Positions 1 through 20,215 of a DNA stretch of 20,215 nt are shown piece after piece. The notes below the pieces were generated by a model that was not told where the DNA came from, did no database searches, and was given only the letters and a program-made list of their open reading frames with translations. A program made the translations under genes and the position numbers. The first letter of the stretch is position 1. The number at the start of each line of letters is the position of its first letter. The DNA is from Candidatus Anstonellales archaeon (GTDB taxonomy: Archaea > Micrarchaeota > Micrarchaeia > Anstonellales > J096): contig JAVYLQ010000008.1 in assembly GCA_038740615.1 (NCBI GenBank), forward strand, positions 1-20,215. Reading direction: 5' to 3'.

Positions 1-1581
1 TGATTCGGAAAATGTGGGTTCTATATCATCTATTGATATCGGTAGGTTATATTTTTCTATTAATCTTTTCAATTCCTTCTTTTCTTCATCATTTAATGAT
101 TTTGGGTTGTCTAATAGTTTTCTTAATTTTCTTAGCTCATTCAATTTATTATTTAATTCAGTTTTCTTTCCTAATAAGATTTTATTGGCCTCCCTAAGTG
201 CCTGAATTACCTCTCTACCTAAATCTCCTGTTGCAGCTTTCATTGCCAGTTGGAAGTGCTCAATAGTTTTTAGATCCAATCCCGCATATGCTAGAAGAGT
301 TCCTTTGGTAAAATGTTGTATTGTTAATGATAGAGCTGTTAGAAATGCACCAAAGTGTGTTATTTTTGTTTCTGGTTTTTGCTCATTTCTCTCAGTAGAA
401 TCAGTTGTTCTATCTACAACTTTCTTTGAAGCCGTTTCAATGCTCAATAAATCATTCACAAACTCATCAATTTTATTATCCACCCAGAGTAATAAGTCGT
501 TTATAAATTTAAATGGGGCGGATATAATCCCACTGATTTCATAAGCAACTCTCTTGAAACCAAATCCACTCTGCTCTTCAAAATTTGATGAAGAGGATGC
601 TTTTCCACTTTCTTGCTCAGCAATTGGTTGAGCAGATTCTTTCTGTTCTTGCTCAGTTGTATTCTCACTCATCAAATCTTCTGGAACTGTAGATTCAGAT
701 TTCTTCTTATTAGTACTTTTATTAACATTCTGATTAAGAACAGCTCTATCTAGAAAATCTCCAACATTTACTAATAAACTAGATGCTTGTCCAACCAATA
801 CATTTGTTTTTGTGTAAGTCTCTCCAATACTCTGAACCACACTCTTCTGAGTTAATTCTTTCTCCGCCTCATCCTGTATTGTCATTATATTATCTGGAGC
901 AAATCCCACATTTCCCTTGTTAGCGTACAACCCTATTCTATATGCATCATTAGGGTTATATATGAATTTAGAAAAGTCTAACCAACCCAAAAATCCTGGA
1001 TTCTTAGATAACCACAATCCACCTAATCCTAACAGAGCTAGAAATAGAATAGTGAGGGCATCATTATTCTGACTACCCGAGAAGTTCAAGCCCGTGAATA
1101 TATTGAATAGTTTTCCTTGTGTCCTATACCAAACTCTCCAATCTACACCATCAGGAGAGGGAATCATATCCATGTTTATATTTGTAGGACTTCCTGCACA
1201 TGGATTTAAGCTTTCTCCTGGAGGAGTCATGAATTTAACCTCAAATTCTATATAAGGATTGTTTATCGATGGATTACTTGCCAACTCTGCGGAGAATGGA
1301 AGTAGATAATAGTTTGCTGATCTAAACTGACCTACGTTTAGAGTAACATAACCATTATTACCGATTTGAAAATAACATGCCCGTTCAGTTCCATCAGATA
1401 GAGTATATCTAAATATCCCCATCATCCCCTGTGGAATATATCTTGAATTTCCATCAGTTATATTTACATAAATAGTGATCTGATTATTGTTTATACTATA
1501 GGTCGATTCTACCCCCAGAATCTGTCTGTGATCGGATATATAGGAATGAGTAATAATGATTAGAAATAGTATCCAGATCAT
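1..1581 (-). CDS. Large hypothetical membrane protein (partial, >=527 aa, runs off the left edge)
   Basis: Hand-translated open frame from ATG at 1581 to base 1 with no stop; absent from the ORF track. N-terminal MIWILFLIIITHS is signal-peptide-like. It is followed by a beta-rich domain with two Cys, a TM-like ALTILFLALLGLGGLWLS, an S/E/Q-rich linker and a helical/coiled-coil region (KKTELNNKLNELRKLRKLL). Confidence 0.85.
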   Translation of the reverse strand, partial: MIWILFLIIITHSYISDHRQILGVESTYSINNNQITIYVNITDGNSRYIPQGMMGIFRYTLSDGTERACYFQIGNNGYVTLNVGQFRSANYYLLPFSAELASNPSINNPYIEFEVKFMTPPGESLNPCAGSPTNINMDMIPSPDGVDWRVWYRTQGKLFNIFTGLNFSGSQNNDALTILFLALLGLGGLWLSKNPGFLGWLDFSKFIYNPNDAYRIGLYANKGNVGFAPDNIMTIQDEAEKELTQKSVVQSIGETYTKTNVLVGQASSLLVNVGDFLDRAVLNQNVNKSTNKKKSESTVPEDLMSENTTEQEQKESAQPIAEQESGKASSSSNFEEQSGFGFKRVAYEISGIISAPFKFINDLLLWVDNKIDEFVNDLLSIETASKKVVDRTTDSTERNEQKPETKITHFGAFLTALSLTIQHFTKGTLLAYAGLDLKTIEHFQLAMKAATGDLGREVIQALREANKILLGKKTELNNKLNELRKLRKLLDNPKSLNDEEKKELKRLIEKYNLPISIDDIEPTFSES

Positions 1582-3900: not shown

Positions 3901-4424
3901 ATCTCTGGAGAGACATCCCCCCAGGAACTCCTGACAAGGCAAATATAGTTATAGAGATCCCTAGAGGTAGTAGAAATAAGTATGAGTATAATCGGGAGAC
4001 TGGGGTAATAGAACTTGATAGAGTATTGTTCTCCTCAATGCACTACCCTACAGATTATGGTTTCATCCCACAGACATACTATGACGATGATGACCCTATA
4101 GATGCTTTATTTTTCTCCCCATTCTTCTCAGTAACCTACCCAGGAGTAGTAGTAAAGGGGAGATTGATAGGAGGGTTTAGAATGGAAGATGAGAAAGGTG
4201 TGGATGATAAGTTAATATTTGTACCCTATGAAAAAGTATTTCCTCATCAGAAGAGAGCTACTTTAGAGCATCTGTCAGATTCATTAAAAGAGGAGATTAA
4301 GTACTTCTTTAGTAGATATAAAGATTTGGAGAATAAGAAGGCTGAGTTCAAAGGATGGATTGATCTGGAGCAGGCTACACAGATATTCAATAGAGCAGTA
4401 CAACTATACAAGGAAAGGTTCTAA
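3897..4424 (+). CDS. ppa: Inorganic pyrophosphatase (family I)
   Basis: IEIPRGSRNKYEY, LDRVL, YPTDYGFIPQT, DDDPID, DEKGVDDK; ATGA overlap with rps10. Confidence 0.95.
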   Translation: MNLWRDIPPGTPDKANIVIEIPRGSRNKYEYNRETGVIELDRVLFSSMHYPTDYGFIPQTYYDDDDPIDALFFSPFFSVTYPGVVVKGRLIGGFRMEDEKGVDDKLIFVPYEKVFPHQKRATLEHLSDSLKEEIKYFFSRYKDLENKKAEFKGWIDLEQATQIFNRAVQLYKERF

Positions 4425-6327: not shown

Positions 6328-6735
6328 TCATATCACAGAAATAACAATGTCCCCGTCAACATTAGTAATGTTCAATACTATATTCCCAACAATTCGTCCA
6401 GAGGTGATATTAACTCTAAATGGATAGATTTTGACAATATCTCCATAATCAGATATATTGAATATCATTATAGTATTATTACCCTGGTGTCTCACTGTGA
6501 TACTCTCCAATTTTATAGGATAATCGTATTTCTTAACAATGTAACTACCATTCCCTTGATACTTTATATTTTTTATATCGGAATCTAAATCAATTATCCA
6601 ATTAGCCGAATTCAGATTGTTTACATTATTCATCATAGAAGCATACTCTGACAGGATCAGAGAGATTATTGGTAAGATTAGAACTAATATAACACCAATT
6701 AATAGGAAATATTCTGTAGCTATCTGAGCCCTCAT
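6328..6735 (-). CDS. Class III signal peptide (type IV pilin-like) protein
   Basis: MRA/QIATEY followed by a long hydrophobic helix: prepilin-peptidase-type site with Gln at +1 and Glu at +5. Confidence 0.8.
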   Translation of the reverse strand: MRAQIATEYFLLIGVILVLILPIISLILSEYASMMNNVNNLNSANWIIDLDSDIKNIKYQGNGSYIVKKYDYPIKLESITVRHQGNNTIMIFNISDYGDIVKIYPFRVNITSGRIVGNIVLNITNVDGDIVISVI

Positions 6736-11946: not shown

Positions 11947-12904
11947 TTCTGTACACCCTTATAGTCTGTTCTGCAATACTATCCCAGGATAATATTTCAA
12001 GTTTCTCTCTAGCTCTCTTGAGTTCTGCACTAAGATCCAGACGATCTAACTTATCTATGATCTTTCCAATATCATCATCTATCAGATATTTCTTGTATTC
12101 ATTTCCAAACAGATATTCTAGAAATGTAGGGATTTCCCCAACAGGAGTGGCTATGAAAGGCCTTTCACAAGCTATACTCTCAACCATTACCATTGGAAAA
12201 CCTTCATATCTAGAAGGCAATACAACATATCTACTATTACAATATATTTCTACAATCTGCTCATAATCAACCTCTCTAAAAACAACATTACTTCTAGACC
12301 TGGCTTTTAGTTCATTTATGAAACCATCTTCATCAGATCCAACTACCATTATATCTCCTGCATATTCGTCTATCAACCTATCTACCCCTTTATCTCTATC
12401 TAATCTACCTATATAAGTTACATACCTTGATTCTCTGTAAGATCTGTTACATTTGAATCTATCCAGATCAATTCCATTATATATCAGAACATAATTCTTG
12501 TGTATCATCTCGATCTTTCGAGAGACACTTATTACCTTAGCTCTCCTGAGTAAATGGATTGCTATGGCGTTGTAAATTTTGAATAGTTTATGTCTATCTG
12601 GAATCCCATGAACAGTCCATACCACAGGTTTTCCACGTAACATCCCAATAAAAGCTCCAATAATCGAAAACAGATTTCCATAACCATGCACATGAATGAT
12701 ATCGTATTTTTCAGTTATCAATTTTACAACAGACTTAATATCTGGTAATGGAGTCGATAGACCTGGTATTCTGATAGGATTTTTAGGGTATACTACCTCT
12801 ACATCAATCTCCTTTTTCTGTAGAGATTTTGTAAGGTTGTATATGTGTATAGCTATACCATCCTTATTTGGATAGTAAGTATGTGAGAAAATCAACACTT
12901 TCAT
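11930..12904 (-). CDS. Glycosyltransferase family 4
   Basis: YDIIHVH, TVHG, NGID, YIGRLDRDKG, PSRYEGFPMVMVESIAC, ATPVGEI, SWDSIAEQT. Confidence 0.92.
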   Translation of the reverse strand: MKVLIFSHTYYPNKDGIAIHIYNLTKSLQKKEIDVEVVYPKNPIRIPGLSTPLPDIKSVVKLITEKYDIIHVHGYGNLFSIIGAFIGMLRGKPVVWTVHGIPDRHKLFKIYNAIAIHLLRRAKVISVSRKIEMIHKNYVLIYNGIDLDRFKCNRSYRESRYVTYIGRLDRDKGVDRLIDEYAGDIMVVGSDEDGFINELKARSRSNVVFREVDYEQIVEIYCNSRYVVLPSRYEGFPMVMVESIACERPFIATPVGEIPTFLEYLFGNEYKKYLIDDDIGKIIDKLDRLDLSAELKRAREKLEILSWDSIAEQTIRVYRNALGR

Positions 12905-13359
12905 TGTCTTCTGCTTCTAACCTCATCAACTATAGCCAACCAGCTATCTCCAATCTTGTTCAGATAATTTCCAAAAGTCTTAGAGATAGTTATTTTCAGC
13001 TTTCTGCTCTTCTTATTGATATCAGAGAACTCTCGTTCTATCTTTATCAATCCAAATGCTCTGAGCTTTACTAATACTCTATTATAGAATGTGGCCTTGC
13101 TTATACTATTGTTTCTAACAAACTCTGCTATATCTGTAGAGTATAACTCTCCATTCTTCTGTATCAGTAGATTTATAAATCTGTTAGCTATTGTGTTGTA
13201 TTTGGGGCTGATCTCTGGGGGAAATACGAAAAACAGAACCTCCTGTAAGGAGAATAGATTCTTGGTAGGTCCTTCATTCTCATCTTGAAATCTCCTGAGT
13301 GTTGGATCATAATGAGCGGGTAAGTATAATATATTTTTAGACTTAACTTTCTTTATCAT
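12901..13359 (-). CDS. Hypothetical protein, probable winged helix-turn-helix
   Basis: STDIAEF...SISKATFYNRVLVKLRAFGLIKIE resembles a wHTH recognition helix and wing; ATGA overlap with the downstream GT4. Confidence 0.65.
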   Translation of the reverse strand: MIKKVKSKNILYLPAHYDPTLRRFQDENEGPTKNLFSLQEVLFFVFPPEISPKYNTIANRFINLLIQKNGELYSTDIAEFVRNNSISKATFYNRVLVKLRAFGLIKIEREFSDINKKSRKLKITISKTFGNYLNKIGDSWLAIVDEVRSRRQ

Positions 13360-13434: not shown

Positions 13435-13521
13435 TACTTATTTAAATTGCAGCTAATGTTTAAAAATCTATTCAGCTATGGAAGAGTAATGTTTTTAAAC
13501 ACTTTTGTATATTATAAATAC

Positions 13522-13746
13522 ATGGACAGCAAAACTGCTGAACAGAAAATTGCCGAAATGAATAACGAAGAAAATATAATAAAAGTACTAGATCCAAATT
13601 TTAATAATAATATAACTGTTTTTGAAAATCCAATAGATGCCCTATCTGGTTTAAATAAATTTTTAAGTGAATCTAATAATCAAGAAAACCAAGAAGAATT
13701 AAAGAGACTAGAAGAATTGTTAAAGAATTTATTGTTAAACAACTAG
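13522..13746 (+). CDS. Small acidic Asn/Glu-rich hypothetical protein (74 aa)
   Basis: Open frame between the two tRNAs; ATG 13522 lies ~25 nt after TTTTTAAA; C-terminal amphipathic EELKRLEELLKNLL. Confidence 0.5.
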   Translation: MDSKTAEQKIAEMNNEENIIKVLDPNFNNNITVFENPIDALSGLNKFLSESNNQENQEELKRLEELLKNLLLNN

Positions 13747-13782: not shown

Positions 13783-13857
13783 AGCGGGGTAGGGTAGCCT
13801 GGAGTGCCCGCCGGGCTCATAACCCGGAGATCGGTGGTTCAAATCCACCCCCCGCTA
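13783..13857 (+). tRNA. Initiator tRNA-Met (CAT)
   Basis: AGCGGGG/CCCCGCT acceptor stem with A1-U72, anticodon arm CCGGG-CTCATAA-CCCGG with three consecutive G-C pairs, GGTTCAAATCC T arm. Confidence 0.97.
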
Positions 13858-13912
13858 TTAAACACTTTTCACAACATAAATATTTTTAAATAGTTGTAAA
13901 TAATATAAAACC

Positions 13913-16495
13913 ATGGAGCTATTAAGAACCGATGGAATTAGTGCTAATGGGGTTTTTTTGGTAGGTAACAGAGAGATAAGAATTGTAGATAATAAACAGG
14001 AGATGGGGATGCTATTTATACCGGCAGAATCAATTCCGAAATCTTTGGAATTGAGTAATAATGTATCATACAAGGGTAATGCTAAGATAGTATCTCTTGA
14101 AGTAATAGATTCTACTGGAAAGAGGAGGAAGTTAGATCTGCTGGTTGCAGGTAATATCGTGTTCTTCAGATTTGATCAGGAGAGTAGATGGACAGTATAT
14201 AGCCCAAATGTACTTCCATTAGATCAGTATCGAATCGAACTGAATGGCAGATCTGTTCAATTATCAAATGTTATCTCTATTGAAGATAGAGTATCACCAA
14301 GAGTCAGAATTCCAGGATATAGACAGAGAATTTATGATACATTGGTAATTAAACCTGAATTTAAAAACTCTATCCCTGTTCAATCTCTAGAACTCAAAGA
14401 TTCAGTAGTATTAAATGAGCTTAGACCCACAAAGATGACTTCTCAGAAAACTGAAGATTCAAAGAGATCTACAAATAATTTACCTCAAGTAATCAGTAGC
14501 ACACAAGGGACTTTTGTTGTGAATGGAACTAGTATAAGATTGGTTAAAGATTTTCATATCACTAGCATGTTCTCCCCTGCAAATACTATCCCCCCATCGA
14601 TGGTGTTAAATGATAACGTATACTTTTCAGGAAAGGCCAAAATAGTATCTCTGGACGTTTATGATTTAAATGGTAGATTAGTAGAATTGCAATTCCTGGT
14701 AGCTAATAATATTGTGATGTTCCGATTCAATGGGGATAATAGATGGTTTCTTTACACTCCAGAAGCATTAGCTTTAGATAATTATAGAGTGAGATTGAAT
14801 GGTAGAGATGTGAAACTATCTGAATTGATAGATATCCGAGATCAATTACAGACTGTTGGTAGTAGAAAAATATATGATGCGATTTTCATAAAGCCGGAGT
14901 TGGCAAATCATCTAAATTCTTCAGGTAAGATTAAAGAGTATACTTTAGAGTCCGTATCTCTGAACTCTCTCATATCTACTAATGTTAAGAACGAGCAAGC
15001 TAAGAGTACAGCTCAGATAGAAAAACCAGGTAATACGGATAGAACTCCATCCCAAAAGGAAACTGTGCAGAAACCCAAGAGATCACCTATGCTTGAACAG
15101 TTGTATAATTCAATTAATAGAGTAGATCGGGATAATGTTGTTGCGGCTGTGGAATCCCTATTGAATGGAAAATATAGATGGATCTGGTTCGGAATTGCAA
15201 AGAGAGATTTACCTACTGTTCAGAAATGGTTCAGGGAAAACTTTGGAGATAAATATGTGTTATCAATCTTGGAGGATAGGGGTAATAGAGTAAGAGTGAG
15301 GGTAGATCCTAAACAGGTATCTCAACCATCTAAGATTCCTCCACAAACCACCACTCCTAAACCTTCTAGTAAAGAATCCCCTAAAGCATTAGATAATATT
15401 CAATCTAATTTAGACTCTCAGAAACAGACTATACCTTCAACTAACCAGACTGAACAACCCCAGGGAAGAGAAAGAGGGGATATGTTAGGAATTGAATTCA
15501 CTAGACAGTTCTCTCAGCATTATTCTGAATTATTGAAGAGTAGAGATATATCTAAGCAACATCTACAGAGAGCTAAAGATATGTTAAGTAGATATTCTGA
15601 AAGGGATATTTATGCGATGTTAGGATTGAATCCTGAACAGATGATCAAGAATAGAGAGATGTTGGCTAGAACAGATCGCAATCTGAAAAGGCCAGAGCTT
15701 ACTGTAGAACAGCATCTAGCTATTGTCTTGATGGCTCTAGATAGAACTGGTGTAAACAGGGGAGAGAATCTGGCTAGAACTGTTATCGAAAATCCTAATT
15801 CTCTGGAGAAAACTGGAGTAAATAGACAGGAGAATCCTATAGTAGATCAGAGAGAAGAACAACTTCAGAAAGCAGAGCAGACTGTTGAATTATCTCAGGG
15901 AACTAGACGAATGTTAGCAGTAGGTAATACAAATGTAGAAGTGTATCTATCTGGAAATCTACTCGAATTAACATTGAATAATCAAAAGTACTATTTGGGT
16001 TTACCTAACAGCGTGGAGGAATTGGAGAGATTGAGGGAAATGGGATTAGAAGAAGCTGTTCCAGTGATAGTGATATCAAAAGAAGGAGCAAATCTCCACG
16101 TTCTAGATCCTAATAGATTAGATGAGCTACAGAAGCTACAGGATGGTGGGGATGCATATTTACTGATCGTTAATGTCTCTGACAGAGGAGTAACTGTATA
16201 TACCACCAAGTTAGATAGAATAGCTCCAGTAATCAGATCCTTGGATGATGTGGTATCTGAACTGAATACTCCGGATTGGATAAGAGATGTTGTTTATAAT
16301 ATAGATAGAAATCCAGAGCAAATAGATCCAAAAGTAGTACCTGGAAAATTAGAATCCTATTACTCAGATGAGGAAATCAGATTGTTGAATCAGATATATG
16401 AGATGTATTTCAAAAGTAGAATGAGTTGGGAAGAATTCGTGGGTTTTGCAATATATTATTTTGAAAAACCTGTTGTTGATGTTGAGGTGAGATAA
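13913..16495 (+). CDS. Large hypothetical protein with duplicated N-terminal beta-rich domain and P/Q/S/T linkers
   Basis: 860-aa ORF; TTTTTAAA about 25 nt upstream; internal repeat visible by eye; no family recognised. Confidence 0.85.
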   Translation: MELLRTDGISANGVFLVGNREIRIVDNKQEMGMLFIPAESIPKSLELSNNVSYKGNAKIVSLEVIDSTGKRRKLDLLVAGNIVFFRFDQESRWTVYSPNVLPLDQYRIELNGRSVQLSNVISIEDRVSPRVRIPGYRQRIYDTLVIKPEFKNSIPVQSLELKDSVVLNELRPTKMTSQKTEDSKRSTNNLPQVISSTQGTFVVNGTSIRLVKDFHITSMFSPANTIPPSMVLNDNVYFSGKAKIVSLDVYDLNGRLVELQFLVANNIVMFRFNGDNRWFLYTPEALALDNYRVRLNGRDVKLSELIDIRDQLQTVGSRKIYDAIFIKPELANHLNSSGKIKEYTLESVSLNSLISTNVKNEQAKSTAQIEKPGNTDRTPSQKETVQKPKRSPMLEQLYNSINRVDRDNVVAAVESLLNGKYRWIWFGIAKRDLPTVQKWFRENFGDKYVLSILEDRGNRVRVRVDPKQVSQPSKIPPQTTTPKPSSKESPKALDNIQSNLDSQKQTIPSTNQTEQPQGRERGDMLGIEFTRQFSQHYSELLKSRDISKQHLQRAKDMLSRYSERDIYAMLGLNPEQMIKNREMLARTDRNLKRPELTVEQHLAIVLMALDRTGVNRGENLARTVIENPNSLEKTGVNRQENPIVDQREEQLQKAEQTVELSQGTRRMLAVGNTNVEVYLSGNLLELTLNNQKYYLGLPNSVEELERLREMGLEEAVPVIVISKEGANLHVLDPNRLDELQKLQDGGDAYLLIVNVSDRGVTVYTTKLDRIAPVIRSLDDVVSELNTPDWIRDVVYNIDRNPEQIDPKVVPGKLESYYSDEEIRLLNQIYEMYFKSRMSWEEFVGFAIYYFEKPVVDVEVR
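13949..14970 (+). repeat. Two diverged tandem copies of a ~155-aa protein domain
   Basis: GNAKIVSLEVIDSTG/GKAKIVSLDVYDLNG, LVAGNIVFFRF/LVANNIVMFRF, LDQYRIELNGRSVQLS/LDNYRVRLNGRDVKLS, RIYDTLVIKPEF/KIYDAIFIKPEL. Confidence 0.9.
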
Positions 16496-19400
16496 ATGGT
16501 GCAGATTAATGCAGTTGCAGTTGAACCTAAGGAGGTATATCTAAGACCAACTGATGAATTTGTAAATGAAAAAGGTGTAAAAGTCTATGATAATGGGAAA
16601 TGGGTAGAGCTAAAAGATAGCAGACAACTCAAACCTGGAGCAAAAATAAGTATAGATGGACACGTATACGTAGTTACAGATCAGAAAACTGATTATACAG
16701 TGAGTATGTATAATAAATATACTCTAGCTGATGGGAGAACGGTTTATGAATTACCTGGTAAGAGATATCTACTTGTATCTGGAAATTCTCAATCTTCAAT
16801 ATCAGAGGCAAGATTCAAGACTCTTATAGAATCCGCTAGAAGTGTGGAAACAATTGTATACGTTAGCAATTCTGTATATCAACACAACAAACAGAAAGAT
16901 AAACCTTCCCAACCATCAGAACAGCAAAAAACAGATCCTAGACAGGAGCAGAGAGCTATTCCACAACCTACCAGCCAGGAACAGAAACCTCAGTCTACTA
17001 GCCAGATGAGCAGACAGGAAACTGCAAGATTCTTACACACAGGAGCATATCTACTGAGTGGTATTGATATTTATGTAAATGATCCTGCTCTATACTCAAG
17101 GACTTTCGGAGAATGGTTAGATGAGGTAGATAAGGCTACTGGTGGTAAGTACTCCAAATCTCTAATGGAGGCTTTAGGTATAGATAGTAAGCAGCTAGAG
17201 GAGCTTAGATCGAAATCTCTAGCAGAAATAATGGCAGCTAGAAGAGATCTGGGAAGTTTATTAACTTCCAAAAGTGTTAAGGAGAGTGATCTTGATACTC
17301 TAAGAGGAAGGTACGGAGATGCTCTATTGTTAGTACTACTGAGAGCTACTACTGGAGATAGGAATCTAACTCTAGATGATGTTAGAGAAGCCATAAGATT
17401 TGTTGGTAGTGATACTTACAGATCTGCTCATAGGGAGATTAGAGATATATCAGCAAGAGCTGCAGATCAGTTAGAACAGAGGAATATACTAGAAAGATAT
17501 TACTTTGTTAAATACGCTTGGCCAGCAATCAAGAGAATGGATGGAATGAGCTATGTGGAGAATAATCTCTATATGGAATTCAGCCTGAACAGTACTAAAG
17601 GGGCTCAGTTCTTAGAGAGAGTGTTAGGTCAGAATTTCTCAAATAACTATCTGAGTTACAGATATGGTTTACCATTCATGATCAGAACAAATTCATCTTT
17701 TGATAATCTGATAGCTATGCTATCAGCAGTTGAGCAGGTAAACCTGGGGATTATGAACAATCCTACCGCTCTGGGTTTAAATAGAATGGAGCAATTTAGA
17801 TATTACACTTCAGAATTGCCTAGAATAGTAGCATCATTATATGCTAACTATGCTGCAGCTCTTGAACCTAGACTCAGATCAGGATTATTAGGTGATTTTG
17901 AAAGCAGATTAAGGCGATATACTTCAGCTACATCTGGAATGAGATTTGATCAGGTTGAGGAAGTTGCAAAGATCATAGAGGATTTTGTTAGAGCTGGAAA
18001 GGATCTAAGAATCCCTTCGGATAATACCTTTGGAGCTCGAGGTAATGTTAGGGCCTCACCAGTCTTAAGAGAACCTCAATTAAATCTGCTAACACAAGGG
18101 TTGATAATGAATATGGGACAGCTAATCTCAAGATACAATCCAAATGCAGGATACTTCTTCTCCCTACCTCAAGAGTGGTTAGATCTCAGAGGTAATCTAT
18201 ATTATGAAGCTACAGAGAGTAGTGCTAGAGGTTCTGGTAGAGTAGAACTCAGAGGAACCAGATCCTATGTAGCAACCAGTATTGATAATGATAGATTGCA
18301 ATTTTTGGCTAGAAATATAGAGATGCTAAGGGAACTAAGAGGAACAGTCTCCCCTACCAGAGTAGAAGTGGAATTAGAGGCTCAATTAGATAGAGAGTTT
18401 AGGGGAGCAAATGTAGGAGTAGTATTTAGGAGAGAGAATGGTAAAATGGAGGGGATTCTATATGCAAAGATAGATGGTAATTGGTATAGAATAGGAAGAG
18501 TGGATAATTCTTGGTTACTTGGTATGGATGTAGTTATCCCAGGATTAGCTAATGCAATTGGAGAGGTGAGAGTTGGTGATAGTGGTAGTGTTGTGGGTAG
18601 TATAGGAATCGCTATGCCACAACTATCAGGATGGGTTGTGAAAACTGAAGAGGATCTGTTGGCTATAGGTGCATATCTGTTGAATGGTAATCAGTTGGCT
18701 GCAGGAACTTTTGCTAATCAGAATGTTACTGCTCCAAATTTAGTATACGCAGGATTCTACAACGGTAATGTATTATTAGGTGGACAATACCTAACCAAAG
18801 ATTACTCTATTAGTGGTATGGGAATTTTAGGTAATGGTCTAGGTATAGAGGTGACTTTCGGAACTAGGACGATTGTATTACAAGGAGGTTATGCTAACTT
18901 CGATGGATTATCTAGTGTTTATGGAGCTGCAAAGGCCATAGTAGGAGATATGAGAGTATTTGCCGCATATATTGCATCTGGGGAGAGAATGTTCATGGGT
19001 GCTGCTGTGGAGAGAGATGGATTTGCTCTACAGGCTTATAGAATGTCCAAGGTTGATCCAAAGATCTTTGGAATGTACAGCAATTTCTTCAGGGATGCCA
19101 GTTCATTCACTGGTGCAATTGCCCTTTGGGGAAGAAACTATGCAGAGCTAATAGTTGCACAGACCCCTGAGGATTTGAGGATTTTACTAGGAGGGGGTTA
19201 TAGTGTAGAAGGAGGTGTGGAGCTTAGTGGTGCGGTGGGTTTTGGGAATGGTGAGAGAATGATTGCAGCCAGAGCCACCCTACCTATAGGAATATGGTTG
19301 GCATCAGCAGGTGTTCTATATCAGAGTAATAAATTACTATTTTCCGCATCAGCTCAAAATCAGCAATGGTTCTTCGGAGCAGCATATAACACATCAACAG

Positions 19401-19693
19401 GAGTATTAGGAGTAAAGGTTAGATACGGGGACTCAGATAGGACTATAGGGGTATACACATCTTTTTCTAATAGGAGTATAGGAATAATTGGTGAATATGG
19501 GTTCTTCCTGAATGAGGCCATATTCTTATCACTGAGTGCTGCATATGCAACTGGAGAATCAGGAGGATGGTATGTTGGTGCTAGAGCAAGCTATAATCAG
19601 GCCAACTCTAATTTAAATGTGGAGATTCAATACGGGGAGCAGGGCGAGAGAAGGAGGATCAGAATAGGGGCAAGTATGGTATATGCATTCTAA
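16496..19693 (+). CDS. Large hypothetical protein with putative C-terminal membrane beta-barrel
   Basis: 1065-aa ORF with GAGGTGA SD upstream; residues ~620-1065 are consecutive Gly/aromatic-rich alternating strands ending in YAF. Confidence 0.85.
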   Translation: MVQINAVAVEPKEVYLRPTDEFVNEKGVKVYDNGKWVELKDSRQLKPGAKISIDGHVYVVTDQKTDYTVSMYNKYTLADGRTVYELPGKRYLLVSGNSQSSISEARFKTLIESARSVETIVYVSNSVYQHNKQKDKPSQPSEQQKTDPRQEQRAIPQPTSQEQKPQSTSQMSRQETARFLHTGAYLLSGIDIYVNDPALYSRTFGEWLDEVDKATGGKYSKSLMEALGIDSKQLEELRSKSLAEIMAARRDLGSLLTSKSVKESDLDTLRGRYGDALLLVLLRATTGDRNLTLDDVREAIRFVGSDTYRSAHREIRDISARAADQLEQRNILERYYFVKYAWPAIKRMDGMSYVENNLYMEFSLNSTKGAQFLERVLGQNFSNNYLSYRYGLPFMIRTNSSFDNLIAMLSAVEQVNLGIMNNPTALGLNRMEQFRYYTSELPRIVASLYANYAAALEPRLRSGLLGDFESRLRRYTSATSGMRFDQVEEVAKIIEDFVRAGKDLRIPSDNTFGARGNVRASPVLREPQLNLLTQGLIMNMGQLISRYNPNAGYFFSLPQEWLDLRGNLYYEATESSARGSGRVELRGTRSYVATSIDNDRLQFLARNIEMLRELRGTVSPTRVEVELEAQLDREFRGANVGVVFRRENGKMEGILYAKIDGNWYRIGRVDNSWLLGMDVVIPGLANAIGEVRVGDSGSVVGSIGIAMPQLSGWVVKTEEDLLAIGAYLLNGNQLAAGTFANQNVTAPNLVYAGFYNGNVLLGGQYLTKDYSISGMGILGNGLGIEVTFGTRTIVLQGGYANFDGLSSVYGAAKAIVGDMRVFAAYIASGERMFMGAAVERDGFALQAYRMSKVDPKIFGMYSNFFRDASSFTGAIALWGRNYAELIVAQTPEDLRILLGGGYSVEGGVELSGAVGFGNGERMIAARATLPIGIWLASAGVLYQSNKLLFSASAQNQQWFFGAAYNTSTGVLGVKVRYGDSDRTIGVYTSFSNRSIGIIGEYGFFLNEAIFLSLSAAYATGESGGWYVGARASYNQANSNLNVEIQYGEQGERRRIRIGASMVYAF

Positions 19694-20215
19694 ACAGGTA
19701 GAACAGCAATTATTTGGGGATCTTCTTAAACTTGATGATGATCTACTGAAACGTATAGAGGAATTTAATAGAGATAGGGAAGATTCTAAAAAGATAAAGG
19801 TGATTGAACGTTCGGGTGTACGCTATGCAGTAATTGATAATAATTTTATAGAATTTTTCAGAGCACAGGACTTAAGAGAGAGATATGAAATCAGAGTTGA
19901 GCAGGAGCAGAATGGTTCTAGAGTATTTGTAGCCGTTCAAAAGAAAGAGAGGAAGATTGGGGCGGGACTAAGTCATGATAGTCAAGGTTTTGGAGCTGAA
20001 TTGAGTGTTCAAACACCTGAGTTGGGTAAGATAGCCGTTAGTGTTGGCTCTTCACAAACATCATTGCATGCAAATGCATTTAGATTAGAGGGATCTCGAT
20101 TAGGAAGTGTGTACCCTAAGATCTCTGCAGTATGTTTGGGAATTCTCTGCTGGAATGATGGTAGATTTGGACTTTCCCTGCCAACATTTAGTGGATTTCT
20201 AGATTTCTTTATAGC
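19683..20215 (+). CDS. Hypothetical protein (partial, >=177 aa, runs off the right edge)
   Basis: Hand-translated from ATG 19683, overlapping the previous gene by 11 nt: MHSKQVEQQLFGDLLKLDDD...KIGAGLSHDSQGFGAELSVQTPELGKIAVSVGS...; no stop before the window end. Confidence 0.8.
   Translation, partial: MHSKQVEQQLFGDLLKLDDDLLKRIEEFNRDREDSKKIKVIERSGVRYAVIDNNFIEFFRAQDLRERYEIRVEQEQNGSRVFVAVQKKERKIGAGLSHDSQGFGAELSVQTPELGKIAVSVGSSQTSLHANAFRLEGSRLGSVYPKISAVCLGILCWNDGRFGLSLPTFSGFLDFFI

Follow-up and report, generated by a model that had tools for sequence, protein, structure and literature searches.

We analysed a 20,215-bp stretch of DNA from a Candidatus Anstonellales archaeon (assembly GCA_038740615.1, contig JAVYLQ010000008.1), called the window in the following, which is the entire contig C8 of a 542-kb genome that consists of 31 contigs and is 83% complete. 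The window ends within an operon of four large orphan genes, here named A, B, C and D. The conserved core protein of this operon, B, is predicted from its structural model to form, with its C-terminal ~500 residues, a very large transmembrane-type beta-barrel of at least 22 strands, as found in bacterial outer membranes. We propose, with a probability of roughly 45%, that the operon encodes a membrane-pore complex that is exported without Sec. A barrel had already been guessed from the DNA letters alone (hereafter the original prediction), and for the C-terminal half of B structure prediction agrees with this guess. The parts of B are the following:

16496..19693, plus strand: gene B, 1065 amino acids, Cys-free; this is the operon's conserved core (open reading frame call)
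16523..16885, plus strand: N-terminal beta-rich domain of B, amino acids ~10-130 (AlphaFold2 (AF2), predicted local distance difference test score (pLDDT) about 80-89)
17009..18145, plus strand: helical domain of B, amino acids ~172-550, behind a Q-rich linker of amino acids 136-171 (helices in the AF2 model)
18176..19690, plus strand: predicted C-terminal beta-barrel domain of B, amino acids ~561-1065, with 32 predicted strands and the end ...MVYAF (AF2 model)

AF2 models of B were calculated from a nine-row alignment, in one run with the full-length protein and one run with amino acids 520-1065 (five models). In the full-length model, the helical domain has pLDDT values of 85-95 at amino acids ~200-350, of 55-88 at amino acids ~351-440 and low values past amino acid 443, and a low-confidence beta meander extends from amino acid ~560 on. 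When amino acids 520-1065 are modelled alone, 32 strands are predicted; the best model has a mean pLDDT of 66 and the last ~200 residues reach 75-92. A Foldseek search with this domain model returned 194 PDB matches at E <= 1e-3, led by the FimD/PapC ushers (1.9e-9) and followed by LptD, VDAC and porins, and the full-length model gave matches of the same class. The best 50 VIA rows and the leading Foldseek rows were all transmembrane barrels, at a moderate pLDDT of the model. The N-terminal domain was barely probed by these fold searches, as barrel matches filled the lists.

The sequence of B carries further features of a membrane barrel. The predicted strands are 8-14 residues long, and, independent of how the model folds them, hydrophobic and other residues alternate along them with a value of 0.398, compared to 0.261 +/- 0.036 in shuffled sequences (0 of 1000 shuffles reached the observed value). 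Strand positions predicted to point outwards are 64-77% hydrophobic and those predicted to point inwards 37-41%, in every one of the eight other homologues, at identities as low as 25%. With none of the shuffles reaching the observed alternation and the pattern kept in every homologue, B has the dyad pattern of membrane barrels, with a hydrophobic lipid face and a polar or small lumen face. A barrel of the predicted width cannot hold a hydrophobic core, and we infer from the model that the hydrophobic outside would therefore face either lipid or a buried protein interface. The beta-signal of outer membrane proteins (OMPs) is a C-terminal strand that finishes in an aromatic residue; the terminal residue is F or W in seven of ten distinct B homologues.

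The nearest large barrels of outer membranes are the TonB-dependent/SusC transporters (22 strands; 5t3r_D, 6v81_A, 3efm_A), the FimD/PapC ushers (24 strands; 9fy9_D, 2vqi) and LptD (26 strands; 5ixm_G). Like these, amino acids ~561-1065 of B are predicted to form a long antiparallel meander barrel, hydrophobic on the outside and polar on the inside; an aromatic last residue is found in most members. Unlike these, B has no sequence relation to such barrels, no signal peptide and no Omp85 in its genome; it is encoded by an archaeon, and it carries an N-terminal beta domain and a helical domain. No TonB box, plug or usher- or LptE-type partner was recognised for B. The likeness to the chaperone-usher pathway is confined to the barrel: no genes for a periplasmic chaperone or for pilins were found in the operon, where A, C and D have no family match.

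The exopolysaccharide exporters that combine tetratricopeptide repeats (TPR) with a barrel (BcsC 6tzk_A, PelB 9h80_M, AlgE 4xnk_A) have 16-18 strands; B is modelled with more strands, has no TPR family match and its operon has no synthase genes. Type Va autotransporters (NalP 1uyo_X, EstA 3kvn_A, AIDA-I 4mee_A) have barrels of 12 strands and require a Sec signal and BAM, the machinery of beta-barrel assembly, whereas B has neither and its predicted barrel is much larger. Mitochondrial VDAC and Tom40 (6g6u_A, 9eih_F, 9jvq_A), with barrels of 19 strands that are inserted by the Omp85-type SAM complex (for sorting and assembly machinery), are eukaryotic, whereas no Omp85 was found in the genome that encodes B. 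Overall, B resembles OMP families without belonging to any of them: features at the level of the fold are present fully or in part, while those of biogenesis and profile membership are absent. New here would be a membrane-barrel channel that is archaeal, has no signal peptide, is fused to unknown domains and is encoded in a conserved operon together with three orphan partners.

If the operon encodes a membrane pore, B would be its core, composed of the small N-terminal beta domain, the Q-rich linker, the helical domain and the giant C-terminal barrel. C would be the constant partner of B, while A, which has tandem beta domains and is among the fastest evolving of these proteins, and D would be accessory parts of one subtype. 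All four would be made from one leaderless polycistronic mRNA, transcribed from a single TATA promoter behind the initiator tRNA (tRNA-iMet), with the downstream genes translationally coupled by a Shine-Dalgarno (SD)-like GAGGTGA and an 11-nt overlap. To get into place, the proteins would require neither a Sec signal nor an Omp85/BAM insertase. The barrel would be seated in a lipid layer, which may be the outer envelope layer described for Micrarchaeota in transmission electron microscopy (TEM) studies or the membrane of a host cell, and could open a wide channel there for uptake or exchange, with its soluble domains and partners perhaps holding, gating or aiming it. Secretion, attachment or uptake, the functions put forward in the original prediction, are conjectural. 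A bolder version of this proposal is doubtful: B would then be the first giant transmembrane beta-barrel of Archaea, made without Sec signal or BAM, and A-D a self-inserting translocon that an extremely genome-reduced DPANN symbiont places in its own outer layer or in the host membrane, with a wide channel for the uptake of lipids, metabolites or macromolecules. It would amount to a new kind of cell-cell conduit and offer a molecular handle on the disputed outer membrane of Micrarchaeota.

A pore of this kind, if real, would bear on how DPANN symbionts physically tap their hosts, and on whether BAM is dispensable for the origin or the insertion of large membrane barrels. It would also bear on whether Micrarchaeota really have an outer membrane, on which TEM reports and cryo-electron tomography (cryo-ET) disagree. 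The genus that carries the operon (G000, the genome of the window, to G005) has genomes of 0.5-0.6 Mb (77-88% complete), the smallest among the sampled relatives (0.6-2.0 Mb in G006-G040), and yet the operon takes up ~8.8 kb of a ~0.6 Mb genome (measured in G001), or ~1.5% of the DNA, indicating that it is important to the lifestyle of these organisms.

Several observations weigh against a membrane pore. On the side of the model, confidence is moderate: the five domain models have mean pLDDT values of 66, 55, 54, 49 and 42, residues ~608-847 stay below 50 in the full-length model, and closure of the barrel and the strand count are predictions of the model. Amphipathic strands also occur in soluble sheets, and three of the ten B homologues end in Q, R or K instead of an aromatic residue. 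Sequence profiles (Pfam, NCBIfam, PDB sequences) do not connect B with any OMP family, and B scored 0.89 at best in the ESM Atlas, where a porin cluster reached only 0.85, which is a lead only. To our knowledge, outer-membrane-type beta-barrels are held to be an invention of bacteria and organelles that needs Sec export and Omp85 insertases. Neither a signal peptide nor a hydrophobic or transmembrane helix is present in A, B, C, D or their homologues, judged without a dedicated predictor from their polar N-termini and the absence of a hydropathy peak, and the start codons of the genes cannot be shifted upstream because stop codons precede them. Omp85/BamA (PF01103) had no match in the 83% complete genome, while the same search found matches in 7 of 14 reference genomes that served as controls. 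The binding of A, B, C and D to each other in one physical complex is suggested by conserved adjacency and coupling only. Finally, the nature of the outer layer is disputed: inner and outer membranes were reported by TEM for ARMAN (PMC4243693, Klingl 2014) and for ARM-1 (PMC8784108, Sakai 2022), but cryo-ET of the cultivated micrarchaeon ARM-1 takes the outer layer as an S-layer, not as a membrane (PMC11329633, Johnson 2024).

The missing Sec signals, the missing Omp85 and the disputed outer layer make a cytoplasmic location a real rival, even if we regard it as unlikely. A-D would then build a large soluble, non-membrane assembly, such as a cage or a tube, and the hydrophobic outer face of B would be buried against its own copies or against A and C. 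Four proteins that have neither signal peptides nor transmembrane helices would suit such an assembly, and cryo-ET of ARM-1 shows unexplained cage-like bodies inside the cells, with a length of over 100 nm and a width of 50-70 nm (PMC11329633). However, there is no known link between the genes of the operon and the ARM-1 cages, and the operon was not found in the 13 other genomes of the family, among which the lineage of ARM-1 is perhaps not represented. A predicted barrel of at least 22 strands with a conserved hydrophobic outside and polar inside is, moreover, the signature of a lipid-embedded protein, and all top structural matches are barrels of this type.

It is also possible, and in our view distinctly improbable, that the barrel of B is an artefact of modelling. 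The C-terminal half, rich in Gly, Ala and aromatic residues, would then be another beta-rich structure (a solenoid, stacked sheets, a fibrous or a surface-layer-like protein), and the operon would encode structural or scaffold proteins of unrelated function. Such an error could arise from an alignment as shallow as the one used, from which only one of five domain models reaches the mean pLDDT of 66, with low confidence in the middle of the domain, and it would suit the failure to find a relation to OMPs at the level of sequence. Against an artefact, the two independent runs, full length and domain, return the same class of matches and the last ~200 residues reach a pLDDT of 75-92; the strand lengths, the dyad pattern and the aromatic C-terminus suit a membrane barrel too.

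Pfam, PHROGs, NCBIfam and PADLOC gave no usable match for A, B, C or D, and the defence-system models of PADLOC matched none of the four proteins. PDB sequence profiles, searched with all four alignments, gave nothing below E 0.03 and not a single match for B. None of nine B homologues had a family match at E <= 0.05 apart from one chance-level DUF2857, with OMP, usher, autotransporter, TPR and RHS families among those sought. The ESM Atlas had no return for C. Full-text literature searches turned up no paper that describes this family or deals with transmembrane beta-barrels of DPANN or Micrarchaeota. As the sequence libraries do not recognise them, A-D lie outside the known families, and the original prediction had rightly called the proteins unrecognised.

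The other features of the operon and its surroundings are listed here; G001 is a genome of the same genus that is 95% identical and has the operon intact, with genes for A (886 amino acids), B (1064), C (774) and D (209) in this order.

13783..13857, plus strand: tRNA-Met (CAT) with initiator-type features, directly 5' of the operon (ARAGORN and sequence reading)
13883..13892, plus strand: TATA-like element TTTTTAAATA, ~25 nt before the ATG of A (sequence)
13913..16495, plus strand: gene A, 860 amino acids, Cys-free, modular (open reading frame call)
13940..14374, plus strand: repeat 1 of A, amino acids 10-154 (BLASTP against repeat 2)
14498..14914, plus strand: repeat 2 of A, amino acids 196-334 (BLASTP against repeat 1)
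19683..20215, plus strand: first 177 codons of gene C, which the contig end truncates; the complete protein has 774 amino acids in G001 (open reading frame call)
L009 of G001, 12306-12791, and contig C27 of the genome of the window, 3934-4419, minus strand on C27: PduO-like gene E (PF01923)

The three open reading frames (ORFs) of the window, A (13913-16495, 860 amino acids), B (16496-19693, 1065 amino acids) and C (19683-20213, 177 amino acids, open at its 3' end), all lie on the plus strand: the TAA stop of A (16493-16495) is immediately followed by the ATG of B at 16496, and the last 11 nt of B (19683-19693) are shared with C. This layout is exactly as originally predicted, as are the TATA-like element behind tRNA-iMet and the linkers rich in Q, P, S, T and K, which are present in A (160-202, 351-402, 460-525 and 626-650) and in B (118-182). 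The lack of Cys in the two complete proteins also holds (A 0, B 0; the fragment of C has 2), and is less unusual than it had seemed: 37% of the 274 ORFs of at least 250 amino acids in this genome are Cys-free, and so are 4 of the 19 ORFs of at least 800.

Just upstream of A are a tRNA-Asn gene on the minus strand and the tRNA-Met gene on the plus strand. The tRNA-Met shows an A1:U72 pair, and its anticodon stem has GGG/CCC where it adjoins the anticodon loop; we take both to be marks of an initiator tRNA. The tRNA is identical in G001 and G004. The TTTTTAAATA element is kept in both genomes as well, reading TTTAAAATA in G004 despite a protein A that is only 35% identical there, which fits A as a leaderless first cistron. 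While the internal gene B is preceded by an SD-like GAGGTGA (16481-16487), the first gene A has none in the inspected stretch 13893-13912, and starts ~25 nt from the TATA-like box. A leaderless first gene together with SD sequences at internal genes is a pattern familiar from other archaea. Read from these letters, TTTTTAAATA is probably the promoter of a leaderless polycistronic mRNA with A as its leaderless first cistron.

Protein A is built from two tandem domains of ~145 amino acids, small modules, helical modules and linkers, and its C-terminal tail is conserved. The two tandem domains are 46% identical over 145 amino acids (BLASTP, E 2e-40) and are the product of a tandem duplication. 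By composition, C is mostly helical, with a Gly-rich, beta-like stretch at its N-terminus; a comparison of this N-terminus with the B barrel found no relation.

The part of the operon that is cut off in the window is found in the same genome on contig C27, which carries the rest of gene C (amino acids ~223-774), gene D and the PduO-like gene E. Long contig pieces from hot-spring sequencing runs, 5418 and 4831 bases in length, cover the operon, each with 4 differences, and within the 5' part of gene C such contigs differ by in-frame indels only (+GAT and -3, at 19985 and 20056). At the end of the window (20162-20215) two alternative metagenome contigs form a strain-variant bubble that coincides with the contig end and explains the break inside gene C, so that strain micro-diversity probably caused the assembly to stop there. 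Operon sequence was listed for 19 public runs; each of these is hot-spring DNA and none is RNA.

The distribution of the genes was examined in 41 related genomes, many of them incomplete: the genome of the window, five of the same genus and 35 of other genera. B and C are each present in the same six of these genomes, including all five of the same genus, and were found in none of the 13 genomes of other genera of the family and none of the 22 of the order's other families. B and C are adjacent in each of the six, and are so too in L014, a 204-kb metagenome contig of a more distant archaeon. A is present in three of the five same-genus genomes, and so is D. G004 has the same gene order behind the same two tRNAs and G003 has A-B-C on one short contig. 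G002 and G005 have a second subtype, consisting of a longer B (1246 or 1540 amino acids) and C, next to Hjc and other core genes; that this long B is a fusion of A and B was rejected, with hhalign probabilities of 2-3%. L014 carries a third form: three tightly coupled genes encoding Cys-free proteins of 730, 1012 and 733 amino acids between S6e/Cbf5 and MCM, with a B that is 28% identical. The first of these genes was tried as a counterpart of A, and its likeness is limited to the tail and non-significant. Gene order, which had been proposed as a check on the original prediction, is thus conserved in every relative that has the genes, and all three locus types lie amid archaeal housekeeping genes. 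A search of 1.84 billion representative proteins with the B profile gave seven matches: six family members, among them a fragment, and a saposin-repeat protein that is spurious; those database relatives of A and B that have names are labelled Micrarchaeota or Anstonellales.

Between the genome of the window and G004, the proteins are 35% (A), 46% (B), 33% (C) and 55% (D) identical, compared to 75% for the neighbouring PduO-like gene. The ratio of nonsynonymous to synonymous substitution rates (dN/dS) against G001 is 0.21 for A, 0.13 for B, 0.22-0.26 for C and 0.20 for D, compared to 0.00-0.12 for neighbouring genes, indicating that A-D are real, constrained genes under purifying selection that evolve at about double the rate of their neighbours. 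The GC content at third codon positions (GC3) of the operon genes is 0.27-0.29 (genome mean 0.285 +/- 0.029), and the usage of AGA, CTA and ATA is close to that of the genome. The codon style had been called native from the start and this stands, with the qualification that the codon-frequency distances of A (0.96) and B (1.16) are in the upper part of the range of long ORFs (median 0.69, maximum 1.29). The operon A-B-C-D is native to, and vertically inherited in, a strongly genome-reduced genus of hot-spring Micrarchaeota.

A provirus structural module had been named as the finding that would speak against an apparatus of the cell, and it is very improbable that an integrated virus or mobile element has the operon as its structural or entry module. 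In favour of this reading, the operon directly follows tRNA-Asn and tRNA-Met, and these are classic sites of integration; its proteins are large, fast-evolving orphans, and B has one weak PHROG match (phrog_12548, unknown function, E 0.0031). Against it, there is no integrase or other hallmark gene, and the tRNA 3' end is not repeated within 20 kb. PHROGs has no structural match for A-D, with 0 of 5 proteins matching, and the BFVD matches are phage-borne porins only. GC3 equals that of the genome, and the neighbours are housekeeping genes. Three genomes with 35-46% identity in these proteins keep the operon in the same place, and no tRNAs accompany the other two locus types, which lie among core genes.

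Among the neighbours of the operon, the PduO-type domain of gene E is the only significant match. Gene E, a homologue of PduO-type ATP:cob(I)alamin adenosyltransferases (PF01923, E 5e-28, under the NCBIfam equivalog cut-off), lies 30 nt behind D; in G001, it is followed by GatE on the opposite strand and further on by a PCNA-like gene and by type I cas genes. The latter are ~3 kb downstream of the operon (L009 15258-19776) and encode Cas6, a 580-amino-acid unknown protein, Cas7/DevR and a Cas5-like protein.

Of the 18 other ORFs of the window that were scanned, 14 have a Pfam family; aEF-1alpha, S10, L44e, RFC, Rpb7/RpoE, aIF2-alpha and RIO kinase are among them, which marks the organism as an archaeon. 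No Pfam family was matched by three further ORFs, at 1-1581 (minus strand, 527 amino acids, open-ended), 6328-6735 (minus strand, 135 amino acids) and 12901-13359 (minus strand, 152 amino acids). Between tRNA-Asn and tRNA-Met there is, in addition, a 99-amino-acid ORF with a TTG start (13447-13746, plus strand) that matches no family and is present in G001 with a dN of 0.03 and a dS of 0 over 97 codons; it may be no gene, and this AT-rich spacer could hold promoters instead. The 152-amino-acid protein is 100% identical in G001, at a dS of 0.10.

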